Below, one piece after another: positions 27,301 to 57,300 of a DNA stretch of 64,000 nucleotides. The DNA is from Eledone cirrhosa (lineage: Eukaryota). The stretch covers positions 5,952,001 through 6,016,000 of the forward strand of contig OZ024766.1 of the NCBI GenBank assembly GCA_964016885.1. Reading direction: 5' to 3'. Below the pieces are notes generated by a model. It was given only the letters and a program-made list of their open reading frames with translations. It searched no databases and had not been told where the DNA came from. Numbering within the stretch: position 1 is the stretch's first letter; every line of letters begins with the position of its first letter. Made by a program: the position numbers and the translations under genes.

Positions 27301-30300
27301 AGAGAGAGTGTATATAAATAATTGGTATATATATACATATATATATAGTGTGTTGACATTGTCCTGTATATATAGAGAGAGAGTGTATATAAATAATTGG
27401 TATATATATACATATATATATAGTGTGTTGACATTGTCCTGTATATATATAGAGAGAGTGTATATAAATAATTGGTATATATACACATATATATATAGTG
27501 TGTTGACATTGTCCTGTATATATATAGAGAGAGTGTATATAAATAATTGGTATATATATACATATATATATAGTGTGTTGACATTGTCCTGTATATATAT
27601 AGAGAGAGTGTATATAAATAATTGGTATATATATATATATATATATATATATATAGTGTGTTGACATTGTCCTGTATATATATAGAGAGAGTGTATATAA
27701 ATAATTGGTATATATATACATATATATATAGTGTGTTGACATTGTCCTGTATATATATAGAGAGAGTGTATATAAATAATTGGTATATATATATATATAT
27801 ATATATATATATAGTGTGTTGACATTGTCCTGTATATATAGAGAGAGAGTGTATATAAATAATTGGTATATATATACATATATATATAGTGTGTTGACAT
27901 TGTCCTGTATATATATAGAGAGAGTGTATATAAATAATTGGTATATATATACATATATATATAGTGTGTTGACATTGTCCTGTATATATAGAGAGAGTGT
28001 ATATAAATAATTGGTATATATATATATATATATATATATATATAGTGTGTTGACATTGTCCTGTATATATATAGAGAGAGTGTATATAAATAATTGGTAT
28101 ATATATATGTATAGTGTGTGTATATAAATATATAGTGTGTTGAAACAGAGAAGAGTGTATATAAATAATTAAATGGGTATATCGTGTATGTGTGTGTGTG
28201 TATATAAACACGATGATGATGATGATAGTATGGATGTGTGTGTGTATATTTGTGTGTGTGTGTGTATGTATGTATGTGTGTGTGTGTGTGTGTGTGTGTG
28301 TATGTATGTATGTATGTATGTATGTGTGTGTGTGTGTGTGTGTGTGTGTGTATGTATGTATGTATGTATGTATGCATGCATGCATGCAAACATTACAATG
28401 AAGAAATATATTAGTTTCATGCTTGATATAATAGGAAAAGAGTCTTAAAGTTTCGGGCACTAGTCCTTCATCAGAATATAGAATGAGAAATATATATATA
28501 TATATATATATATACATATACATACCTTTCCGTGTTCGTTGACTGCAGCAAGTGCAGCATCTCGCATGTTGGTCTGAACCTCGTGTGCGCGGTCACCCAG
28601 CGCCTTCGGTACGTAGAATGCGAAGAGGGTGGCTATGAGATGTTTGGGCAAGAGTGGCGCCATCTTGGTGAGACAGAGGGCGATGCCACTGCGTGACATC
28701 CAGTCGTCGGGGATCGGGTCCCCAATGACACGCCCAAAACTGTCGACCTCTGGTGGTGGTAGCTGAAGAGAAAGAAGGGGCAGTTGTGAGTGAGGTGAGA
28801 GACAGTGACAAAAACATACATATCCATATATACACATATATATATAGTGAGATAGATAGATAGGAATGAGTGAGATATCCATTGTATGTGAGTGTATATA
28901 TATATATACATACATGTATGTGAATATATGGTGGCTGCCAACTCGTTTTCGAGTACGGCCACTACTTTATATCCATGTAGGAGAACCCCTACCGATGCGC
29001 TGAACGAGTGTGACTTTTTAGTCCAGCCAGCGACTTGAAAACTCTGGTACAAACACTACACTTGTGACAATTATTGACACATAGTGCTGGGCCCATGGTA
29101 CAATGTGACGACAAGTGCAGAGAGATCTCCAGATATAAAGCAATGCCTGTGCCGTGAAGCTTTTATAGTGAGCAAAGGCACTGCACAAAGCCAGTCCCAC
29201 TCTCTTAACCAAGATGATATTTACCAAAAAGAAGAACAAGCCAATTCTCTAACCACTCAGCCACACGCCTTCACTATATATATAAGTATTAATAAAATAG
29301 ATGTTCTTTTGATCAATTACATTTTATTATATATATTTCGGAGGTACAACAGTACGTCCTCATCAGACAAAATATAATGATACATGACATACCCTGAGAT
29401 GTTAAATGGTTAAGATTTAATATATAAAAAATTTTCTGAAGTTATTAATATTAAAATATAAGTATTAATAAAATAGATGTTCTTTTGATCAATTACATTT
29501 TATTATATATATTTCGGAGGTACAACAGTACGTCCTCATCAGACAAAATATAATGATACATGACATACCCCTGAGATGTTTAACAACTTAATACTTATAT
29601 ATAAATATATATATTTACACACACAACAACAACAGTAACAACAACAGTAACTTACAAAAAGCTTCTCTGCATATTTCTCCAGCAGCAAATGCAACATCGG
29701 TGCAACCTGCTTCTTGTGAAACGCGAGCACGGCTGCGACGGTGCAGGCTGCTGCCTGGCGGACTGTCTCTTCCGGGTGGATCACATCCTCAATGAGGAAG
29801 GTCGCCATCTTGGAGGGGGGGTTCAGGATCTTTAGCTTCGTCTCCAGGCTGTGGAAGATAGACGGGGGTGATATTATATTATATATATAAATATATATAT
29901 ATGTGTGTGTATGTATGTATATGTGTATATATATATGTGTATGTGTATGTATGTATATATGTGTGTATATATATGTGTATATGTGTATGTATGTATATAT
30001 GTGTATATATATATATATATATATGTGTGTGTGTATGTATGTATATATATATATATCTGTATATATGTATATATATATACATAAATATATATTACATATA
30101 TATGTATATATACATATATATGTATATATACATATCATCATCATCATCATCACCGTTTTACGTCCGTTCTTCCACGCTAGCATGGGTTAGACGGGTTGTC
30201 CTGTTGTGGGCAGTGTCTGGTCGGCTGACCATGCCTTGCTCATACAGGAACTGATCTGGCTTGATTTCTACAGCTGGATGCCCTTCCTAACACCAACCTC

Positions 30301-54300: not shown

Positions 54301-57300
54301 GTGGTGGTGGTGTAGTGTAGTAATGGTGGTGTAGTGTAGTAATGGTAGTGGTTAGTGCTGGTGGTGTAGTGTAGTGGCGGTGTAGTGTAGTGGTAGTAGT
54401 GGTGGTGGTGTAGTGTAGTTGTGGTGGTGGCGTAGTGTAGTGGTGGTGCATTGTGGTGGTGTAGTGTAGTAATGGTAGTGGTTAATGCTGGTGGTGTAGT
54501 GTAGTGGTGTAGTGTAGTGGCGGTGTAGTGTAGTGGTAGTAGTGGTGGTGGTGTAGTGTAGTGTAGTGGTAGTAGTGGTGGTGGTGTAGTGTAGTAATGG
54601 TAGTGGTGGTGGTGTAGTGTAGTCACTGTGGTGGTATAGTGTAGTGTAGTAATGTTAGTGGTGGTGTAGTGTAGTGGTAGTGTGTGTAGTGTAGTGGCGG
54701 TGGTGTAGTGTAGTAATGGTAGTGGTTAGTGCTGGTGGTGTAGTGTAGTAATGGTAGTGGTGTAGTGTAGTGGCGGTGTAGTGTAGTGGTAGTAGTGGTG
54801 GTGGTGTAGTGTAGTAATGATAGTGGTGGTGGTGTAGTGGTGCAGTGTGGTAGTGGTGGTGTAGTGTAGTAGTGGTAGTAGTGGTGGTGGTGGTGTAGTG
54901 TAGTAATGGTAGTAGTGGTGGCGGTGGTGTAGTGTAGTAATGGTAGTAGTGGTGGCGGTGGTGTAGTGTAGTAATGATAGTGGTGGTGGTGTAGTGGTGC
55001 AGTGTGGTGTAGTGTAGTAGTGTAGTAATGTTAGTGGTGGTGTAGTGTAGTGGTAGTGTGTGTAGTGTAGTGGTGGTGGTGTAGTGTAGTAATGGTAGTG
55101 GTTAGTGCTGGTGGTGTAGTGTAGTGGCGGTGGTGTAGTGTAGTGGCGGTGTAGTGTAGTGGTAGTAGTGGTGGTGGTGTAGTGTAGTAATGGTAGTGGT
55201 GTAGTGTAGTGGTGGTGTAGTGTAGTAATGGTAGTAGTGGTGGTGCAGTTTAGTTGTTGTTGGTATATTAAAAAAAAAAAAAAAAAAAAAAAAAAAACCC
55301 ATTTGATACTCACCTTCCTGCCCCAGGATGGGAATAAACCTTTCAGTGACGGAGGCCGTGAGTTTCTGTACAACGGGAATTCCACTGACCACATGATGAC
55401 TGAAACTGTGGATACCATTGAGGACTCCGATACGCTGGTCAGCAGAGATTAACTTCCCTTCCGATCCTGGTGGTGGGTGATGGTCATGGTAGGATAGGCA
55501 GAGAAGAGGAGAGAGAGAGAGAGAGAGAGAGAGAGAGGTGGGTTAGTGACGTTAGCTAAATATGGTCACATATGTGTGTGTGTCTATGTATTTAGCTTTA
55601 TGCACGATGACGCCTCTGGCCTCGCTGACCTAGGATGACCCTGGCTTCGCTGACCTTGGATGACCCTGGTCCCATCAAGCAAGAAGATATATATATCATC
55701 ATCATCATCATCATTTCATTTTACGTCCGCTTTTCCCTGCTTGCAAGGGTGGGACGGGAACTGATTCTGGCTTGATTTCTACAGCTGGATGCCCTTCCTA
55801 ACACCAACCTCATTTACAGTGAGTGCTGGGTGCTTTCTTTGCCGTGGCACCTCCACGACCACTTTGCAGTGGAATGATAGGGACCCCAGTCCCTATCATC
55901 TCATTTCTACAGCAATGTGAAATAAAGTGTCTTGCTCAAGGAAACAACACAGCACCCGGTCTGAGAATTGAACTCACAACCTTTCGATTGCAAGGCCAAT
56001 GCTCTAACCACTAAGCCATGTGCCTCCATATATATATATATATATATGTAGAAGGAGTATTTAATTTGTTGGAAGTCCGACAAATATAAATGTTTATAAC
56101 TGATTTAGAGCACTCAACAATTTACTGGAGTAAATATTCGATGATATTAAATAAATGGAAACTATATCTATAAAACCATATTTATTCTATTATATATATT
56201 TCTAGGGTACCAAGACAACATTGGTATGCTTTCATCAGATAAAATACAAAGTTTGTTTTATAAATAGAGACATACCCATGAAAATCATACCTTATCTGTT
56301 GGAAATTCACTGGATAGTGGGAATATATTAGGGATTTTTCAAACTTATGTGTGAATATGCAAATGAATATGTAAATAATTGAAAAACAACCGTTTATTTA
56401 AACGAGTATGGAGAGAGAGAAGAGAAGAAATAGGATGAGAGGATAAAATAGTGCTATATATATATATATATATATATATATATATATATATATATATATA
56501 TATATATATACATATATATATAGGATCTAGGTTTAAATCATGAGATGGCTATGGTTAAGAAAGGTACTCAATATGTAGAGTATAGGTATATAATTATATT
56601 ATTATAAAAATGACTTTTACAGGACTAGAACTGTTTCCTGATGACATAAACATATATAAATATATACATACAAGCTCTATAAATAAATAAATAAATAAAT
56701 AAATAAATAAATAAATTTGCCCCAGGGTGGGAGTAAATTGTAAATCTTACCTGCCAACACTTGAAACAAATGTGTCGCGACACTACTGACTGCCTCAGGG
56801 GAGCTGCACTGCCGAGCAAGGGCCTTAAGGACATCACTTGCCGACTGCCGCACACTGGGTTCTTTTACAAACAACTGTTCTGTAGGAGAGAAAGAGAGAG
56901 AGGTGTAGTGTATTTGTGTATACCACCCCTGTATATCAAACTACTTACGTATAACACCACTTAAGTTTATGACTTAATTATAAAACCACACTGTTCTGTT
57001 GGTGAGAGAGAGGTGTAGTGTATTTGTGTATACCACCCGTATATATCAAACTACTTACGAGAGATGTGTAGTGTATTTGTGTATACCACCCGTATATATC
57101 AAACTACTTACGTATAACACCACTTAAGTTTATGACTTAATTATAATACCACACTGTTCTGTTGGTGGGAGAGAGAGAGATAGAGAGATGTGTAGTGTAT
57201 TTGTGTATAAAACCACCCATGTATTATACCACCTCAGTTTAAGACTTGCTTATAAGACCACTATTCTGTTGGTGACAGAGAGAGGCGTGTAGTGTATTTG

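Follow-up and report, generated by a model that had tools for sequence, protein, structure and literature searches.

Introduction

It is already known that the terminal repeats of Penelope-like elements (PLEs) carry hammerhead ribozymes, and an Octopus family of the Hydra clade has been listed with one. The Hydra clade, as Craig et al. (2021, PMC8557442) define it, is characterised by one open reading frame (ORF) that codes for a reverse transcriptase (RT) and, C-terminal to it, an endonuclease of the GIY-YIG kind, by RW[K/R] and DKT motifs, a CxCx5C linker, CxxC and CxH motifs and the lack of CCHH; its elements have a hammerhead near the 3' end, target (TA)n and may carry an inverted 5'-truncated copy. 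Here we examine a 64,000-nucleotide stretch of the Eledone cirrhosa genome (assembly GCA_964016885.1, contig OZ024766.1, positions 5,952,001 to 6,016,000; hereafter the window) in which nine hammerhead motifs are found within a GCN1-like gene. Very probably these motifs are hammerheads of type I that derive from five related elements of the Hydra clade, all protein-coding, and lie in the 3' terminal repeats (pLTRs) of copies truncated at the 5' end. The new finding is the occurrence of further, new Hydra families at very high copy number.

The ribozymes of PLEs were described as type I hammerheads with a long helix II and a palindromic helix III, predicted to act as dimers (Cervera and de la Pena 2014, PMC4209133; PMC6765202), and as dispersed both singly and in pairs on opposite strands, 100-700 bp from each other, with many compensatory changes (PMC4209133). 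The motifs of the window share all of these properties, but differ from those described in PMC4209133 in having an 8-nt palindromic helix III rather than none, an 8-bp stem I and a C·C at the fourth pair of helix II. The largest count given there is ~9,000, in Xenopus tropicalis, whereas 53,888 motifs are found here. The role of PLE hammerheads is called unclear in this literature.

Metazoan retrozymes lacking long terminal repeats (non-LTR retrozymes; Cervera and de la Pena 2020, PMC7229834; Li et al. 2026, 10.64898/2026.07.22.740005) resemble only one part of the window, a tandem at 29.3 kb. This tandem and its sister array elsewhere in the genome have a non-coding unit of 176 bp, within the described range of 150-450 bp, with one type I hammerhead each, and the tandem also shares the low GC content and pLTR origin of retrozymes. 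Such an origin has been argued for animal retrozymes from phylogeny (Li et al. 2026). Unlike those elements, the 29.3-kb unit is present at two loci, with no amplified family, and is still ~99% identical to its parent pLTR; the other five insertions of the window are not tandem. A literature search on octopus hammerheads, with most subscription papers outside its reach, returned only Craig et al. as relevant, and the families of the window were not described. A recent octopus repeat annotation counts PLEs, its main text naming neither Hydra elements nor ribozymes (PMC13282606).

Results

Hammerhead motifs of the window

A scan of both strands located all nine motifs that a first-pass annotation had reported between 29320 and 56246, those at 36147, 45894 and 52042 being on the + strand and those at 29320, 29496, 45786, 46971, 51840 and 56183 on the - strand. 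They represent six insertions: two mirror-image pairs (45786/45894 and 51840/52042, each forming the inverted arms of one insertion), one 176-bp tandem and three singles. Eight motifs are complete, running in the order UAUUUURU, CUGANGA, helix II, GAAA, UAURU, AUA and an 8-nt strand that pairs back to UAUUUURU, and these have every part of the type I definition (C3-U4-G5-A6-N7-G8-A9, G12-A13-A14, A15.1-U16.1, H17, three helices and an open stem I). The ninth, at 46971, is a fragment.

The earlier description of the motifs requires some amendment. The CUGANGA, GAAA and AUA core is intact in the eight, but the fragment at 46971, thought to lack just the first C, is also without the whole 5' strand of stem I. 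Helix III is palindromic in all complete motifs, although its type differs at 51840/52042 (AUAUGUAU), and the pairing of the stem I strands includes a U·U mismatch at 36147. Within the nine motifs the reported covariation is present as two-sided changes in helix II, whereas changes in stem I are one-sided (G·U/A-U). A supposed shared flank at 34975-35105 does contain the flank, but the remnant at 34962-35110 opens with what is left of a tenth ribozyme that has suffered a deletion, namely its helix II and GAAAUAU. The copies are young, with 96-99% identity to their own families, and the changes that break pairs relative to these families are the U·U in stem I at 36147 and two broken helix II pairs at 56183; a C·A in helix II at 45786/45894 also departs from its family, and the same C·A occurs in a relative, L248. 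At the Rfam gathering threshold, no window motif gave a hammerhead match.

Parent elements

Each of the five ribozyme types (A to D, with A'; Table 1) is found 3' of a PLE frame encoding RT and GIY-YIG domains, in agreement with the Penelope-type origin first proposed; autonomous PLEs with the same terminal repeat, whose existence had been put forward as a check, are present in this genome. Relatives of the copy at 52042 (type A) have a fixed 3' end and variable 5' ends, and their upstream extension reaches the coding region. The full-length layout is a leader, a frame for RT with a C-terminal GIY-YIG domain, a 3' untranslated region of ~1.4 kb, the hammerhead and the end. Two type A loci, L032 and L033, consist of an inverted arm, the leader, the ORF in broken pieces, 1.4 kb, the hammerhead and the end, while L031 has a direct pLTR ahead of the ORF and L036 preserves an open stretch of 678 aa. 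For type A' (45786) a related ORF lies upstream on the same strand in L248 (82-92% protein identity), and for type B (56183) in L111 and L112 (55-80%). Types C (36147/46971) and D (29320) have related ORFs upstream, again on the same strand, in three loci and one locus respectively, to which we return below. For type D, a link through L090/L114, which have a 38% endonuclease on the opposite strand, was not accepted, and L188 was used instead. L031 also contains, at 1-2822 (-), a different Penelope-like ORF with a DKS motif and YVDD, 3 kb from a Hydra copy.

The 678-aa frame contains DKT at 55, YRDD at 289 and VVY..YVG at 556, and RWR is present in the N-terminal frame of L032; among long homologues RW[KR] is found in 44 of 47 and DK[TS] in all 47. 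The linker reads CNCRNKSNC (CxCx5C), there is one cysteine between VVY and YVG, and CDLC and CRH are present, with no CCHH and no CX2-5CxxC. Because RWR, DKT, CxCx5C, the absence of CCHH, CDLC and CRH match the definition in PMC8557442, these protein motifs suggest placement in the Hydra clade, and the C-terminal nuclease is GIY-YIG-like by its motifs. The protein of Hydra-1_Obim from Octopus bimaculoides, as printed in the supplement of that paper, is by eye colinear with the window-family ORF; the ribozyme listed for it has other helices, so the families are separate. A GIKF lies ~30 residues ahead of DKT, whereas GxKF/Y is not conserved in the clade definition and Hydra-1_Obim has no GIKF at the equivalent place. 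The predicted protein model (pLDDT 86) had telomerase RT as five of its top eight Foldseek matches.

Anatomy of the insertions

Copies were sampled with a flank 24-mer, giving 88 copies at 87 loci from the first 90 of 3,176 matches. Past the long end, 75 of the 88 run into TA repeats, 2 into the ORF leader and 1 into other sequence, and 10 are without that end. The insertions usually have two arms. Two-armed pairs are long+short in 36 of 38 cases and long+long in 2, with no short+short (two 'short' arm calls were alignment failures scored 0), and the short arm mostly ends 56 nt past the cleavage site. This combination fits two internal RT start sites together with cleavage of both strands, as shown in vitro for PAc, a Poseidon element from Anolis (Frangieh et al. 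2024, PMC11167929), and the same properties would explain the arms seen here. Poseidon belongs to another clade, its ribozyme overlaps the ORF start and its two sites bound a short tail. The arm ends here lie ~90-100 nt apart, in contrast to the 30-40 bp tail described for the Hydra clade, and the 1.4-kb gap between ORF and ribozyme is a further difference (PMC8557442).

Conservation of structure and sequence

Eighteen sequences of our own choosing were aligned with MAFFT. In this alignment 93.1% of helix cells are paired, against 34-56% in slid registers, a control that controls for relatedness in part. Twelve of the 20 pairs (eight of nine in helix II) change on both sides and none of 500 shuffles scored as high, which bears out the suggestion that structure is conserved beyond sequence. 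Most of the two-sided change in stem I is contributed by a distant family. A distant hammerhead family at L174:1927-1991 and L081:1813-1880 (both -) differs in stem I (ACUGC/GCAGU) but shares both the C·C mismatch and the helix III sequence AUAUAUAU. The core was unchanged in all 18 sequences, which had been harvested by the core itself.

In a gap-free, anchor-based comparison of 10 clusters with at least three hits (out of 21 clusters from 363 hits), eight of the nine helix II positions pair in register in 8-10 of these clusters, and the fourth is a C·C mismatch in all 10. No description of a C·C mismatch in hammerhead stem II was found in a literature search with most subscription papers outside its reach. 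It may serve these dimeric hammerheads as a site, so far undescribed, of tertiary contact or protein binding.

Variation in the core was compared in those of the 88 flank-anchored copies whose sequence extends beyond the ribozyme, 61 in number, a sample biased to young copies from which 27 truncated ones were excluded. Variants common to at least three copies make up 0% in the core, 1.4% in the flanks, 7.3% in loop 2 and 47.5% at N7. The idea that catalysis is under selection holds for variants shared among copies, but no significant deficit of private changes could be detected in the core of inserted copies, and the core is broken in 4 of the 61. There is thus evident purifying selection in the master lineages, and no detectable protection of the core once copies are inserted, at low power. 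Selection would thus act on active master elements, the intronic copies being decaying passengers.

Abundance in the genome

The pattern TATTTTRTCTGANGA-N14-40-GAAATATRTATAAT was searched on both strands of the 3.0-Gb genome, with the reversed pattern as control. There were 53,888 exact matches (27,054 + 26,834) and none for the control, so that the window motifs are not due to chance. Such a density predicts 1.15 motifs per 64 kb and the window holds 8, or 5 intact insertions against ~0.9 expected (P about 0.003), taking 0.8 insertions per motif, an eye estimate from the first 100 matches listed. About 120 windows as dense as this would be expected by chance genome-wide. Fifteen other 10-kb stretches of the same contig contain 3 motifs in total, and the first 29 kb of the window has no motif of the Penelope hammerhead type. 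On these genome-wide, chance and same-contig counts, specific targeting of GCN1 is rejected, and the apparent colonisation of GCN1 introns is a local cluster of a dispersed family.

Most copies are short and non-coding, and retrozymes have been described as PLE derivatives (10.64898/2026.07.22.740005), so the motifs could be taken, as they first were for all nine, for a non-autonomous family, retrozyme- or SINE-like (short interspersed nuclear element), in which a short unit of fixed extent makes use of an enzyme supplied by Penelope elements. We regard this as very improbable. The 5' ends are variable and continuous upward into the ORF; short direct tandems are rare, with 50 and 138 matches in two spacing ranges (one including the window tandem, the other excluding it) against 53,888 motifs, and most of those examined join different families. 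Since all five ribozyme types lie downstream of their own RT/GIY-YIG frame, the label is wrong for five of the six insertions and as an account of all nine motifs is largely refuted. The retrozyme idea does survive for the tandem at 29320/29496.

The 176-bp tandem

The tandem at 29.3 kb (insertion D) has a sister array of four 176-bp units with hammerheads at L190:2840-3620 (G000:C27:7.48 Mb), which terminates in the complete 3' end of the parent; just downstream of this array is a distinct tandem of three 302-bp copies. It is conceivable, though we hold it only tentatively, that the window tandem is a nascent retrozyme, an explanation that would supplement the Hydra-element origin for this one of six insertions. 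A Hydra pLTR would first have duplicated locally into the four-unit array at C27:7.48 Mb. Two ribozymes would then have cut out the 176-nt unit, which likely formed a circle, and the parent enzyme would have gone round this circle 1.6 times in copying it into the intron.

Several observations favour it. The parent end has no such junction between units, and in the whole 3.0 Gb there are just two loci with it; they are separated by 1.5 Mb, run in opposite directions and have unrelated flanks. Segmental duplication was rejected as the source of the shared unit because of these unrelated flanks. Identity between the units is 97.7-98.9%, and a survey of 36 short direct tandems revealed no further unit shared between loci (L271 and L272 overlap one place). 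Both window units have a G>A in helix III that is found in none of the four array units; of 162 family matches, the first 100 include 3 with this change, which makes the palindrome perfect. In addition, the starts of the main arm and of a 13-nt inverted stub are both close to the short site, the sole start site in the monomer, unlike the 38 two-ribozyme pairs counted above, in which short+short was absent. The junction, the shared G>A and the short-site starts are as expected from copying round a 176-nt circle.

On the other hand, two loci do not make an amplified family. Gene conversion between neighbouring units, or a third array that the assembly lacks, could also account for the shared G>A, the AT-rich stub is not the same kind of object as the pairs counted, and a linear multimeric transcript would serve equally as template. 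The monomer has 22% GC and a weak fold (-17.1 kcal/mol as a circle). The circle step is best treated as doubtful. On this reading the daughter copy would sit sense in an expressed intron and could regenerate the circle.

The host gene

The host gene, which runs on the - strand, is GCN1-like: a Pfam GNC1_N match is below threshold (E 5e-5), two exons are colinear on one 2,898-aa PDB record, and by features the nearest clusters include HEAT_GCN1 ones. The PDB record that these two exons match best, 8i9x chain LR, is labelled ribosomal protein L19 and probably represents a fusion of gene models. Four sequencing runs yielded contigs only; in run X4, one of 5,185 nt spans exactly 29656..29848. From the frames of the flanking exons we infer that every motif is intronic; insertion D is sense to the GCN1 pre-mRNA and starts ~55 nt inside an intron. 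The GC-rich exon region at 33864-34745 (-) has long low-complexity acidic, basic and Gly/Asn runs, and the other exons differ. Co-option of the intronic ribozymes for the regulation of GCN1, through cleavage of its pre-mRNA, might be argued from the excess of intact motifs over expectation, from six of nine being sense to the pre-mRNA and from the 29.3-kb tandem, which could form a dimer in cis ~150 nt past a donor site, but with ~120 such windows expected by chance, this one chosen for its cluster, few motifs in other stretches of the contig, and young copies of which several have pair-breaking changes, it is extremely improbable.

Table 1. Positions of hammerhead-bearing insertions and associated features in the window
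Feature	Position	Strand	Remarks
Insertion D, ~1.6 units of a 176-bp pLTR-derived tandem	29280..29600	-	two identical hammerheads
Hammerhead D2	29320..29374	-	predicted cleavage between 29328 and 29327
Insertion D, unit-to-unit junction	29408..29438	-	one other locus: G000:C27:7,481,173 and 7,481,349
Hammerhead D1	29496..29550	-	predicted cleavage between 29504 and 29503
Insertion D, inverted stub	29588-29600		13 nt
GCN1-like host exon upstream of insertion D	29656..29848	-	donor GT at 29655
A' family remnant	34962..35110	+	helix II + GAAAUAU, 34-nt deletion, 3' flank to (TA)n target
Insertion C, pLTR fragment	36112..36241	+	hammerhead 36147-36211; antisense to GCN1
Insertion A', two-armed	45751..46090	both	in (TA)n
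Insertion A', short inverted arm			hammerhead 45786-45851 (-)
Insertion A', long arm			hammerhead 45894-45959 (+)
Insertion C', 3' part	46561..46614	-	split from its ribozyme by SINE sequence
Insertion C', hammerhead fragment	46971..47025	-	without C3 and stem I 5' strand
Insertion A, two-armed	51810..52237		apparent 12-bp target duplication; hammerheads 51840-51904 (-), 52042-52106 (+)
Insertion B, pLTR	56048..56290	-	decayed hammerhead 56183-56246; end in (TA)n

Other repeats of the window

A second, unrelated minimal-hammerhead repeat, overlooked at first, has decayed copies at 28400-28492 and 51096-51188 (both -). It is marked by CUGAUGA, an extra A, a GGAC/GUCC helix II and, in intact relatives, an ACGU palindrome, and related copies occur in ~10 fetched loci. 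A fold-back pair of ~330 bp at 35555-35889 has no hammerhead and is similar also to 35106-35220. A tRNA-derived SINE is abundant (1792-1849, 33151-33214, 52531-52594, 52887-52944 and many more), scores as tRNA in Rfam and often adjoins or splits pLTR copies. Fragments at 30434-31237 (-), 42308-42949 (+), 53027-53467 (-) and 60262-61140 (+) look by their motifs like RTE-type reverse transcriptases of long interspersed nuclear elements.

Discussion

Although the evidence favours an origin of the hammerheads in Hydra-clade elements, a number of observations weigh against it. For type C the similarity of the upstream ORF (L134, L150 and L152; 63-68%) is limited to the endonuclease end, and for type D it is 47% in a single broken copy on the same strand in L188. 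A Pfam search with the L036 frame gave nothing, and neither did a PDB sequence search with the PLE frame; on 44 aligned relatives Pfam recognised RVT_1 in 2 and GIY-YIG in 2, and a GIY-YIG nuclease is absent from the Foldseek matches listed. From leader to end the L032 element measures ~3.8 kb, while Hydra elements are generally below 3 kb, a length that PMC8557442 presents as a tendency and not a rule. Private changes in the 61 copies are nominally lower in the core than in the flanks (0.60% and 1.02%, p=0.41), with four core changes and low power. Cleavage by the ribozyme was dispensable for insertion of the Poseidon element in vitro (PMC11167929). No single motif folds better than its shuffles (z -1.27 to +0.83), which is to be expected of AU-rich ribozymes of the dimer type and has been counted neither way.

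The distribution of arms and targets allows a route of insertion to be proposed. The five elements likely insert at (TA)n by target-primed reverse transcription, in which the enzyme would nick both strands of the TA repeat. The cDNA would begin at two fixed sites on the RNA, ~56 and 140-155 nt 3' of the cleavage site, giving rise to mirror-image arms, and its early termination would leave mostly the end that bears the ribozyme.

The part played by the ribozyme itself may depend on dimer formation. Helix III is poorly closed in one ribozyme, having a 2-nt loop, whereas the self-complementary AUAURUAU gives 8 bp between two. A dimer of the tandem folds at -17.5 kcal/mol compared with -10.3 for two monomers, the unconstrained minimum (-37.9) being another fold. 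The ribozymes are thus predicted to cut only as dimers, and PLE hammerheads have been described as dimer-dependent and slow in vitro (PMC4209133, PMC6765202). Pairing of two ribozymes through helix III might release or circularise element RNA from read-through tandem transcripts, a function that has been hypothesised in the literature on PLE ribozymes. Because the ribozymes are predicted to act as dimers, isolated or antisense intronic copies are probably inert, and the data give no support to a new regulatory layer on GCN1.

If the tentative account of the 29.3-kb tandem is true, a parent element, the birthplace of its derivative and the first daughter copy would all survive in one genome, and would provide a direct, testable example of the first step from pLTR to retrozyme. 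This case and the C·C mismatch of helix II are the parts most worth a bench test. More generally, the ~54,000 intact motifs of E. cirrhosa constitute a large natural library of variants with which to ask what the hammerheads of PLEs do.

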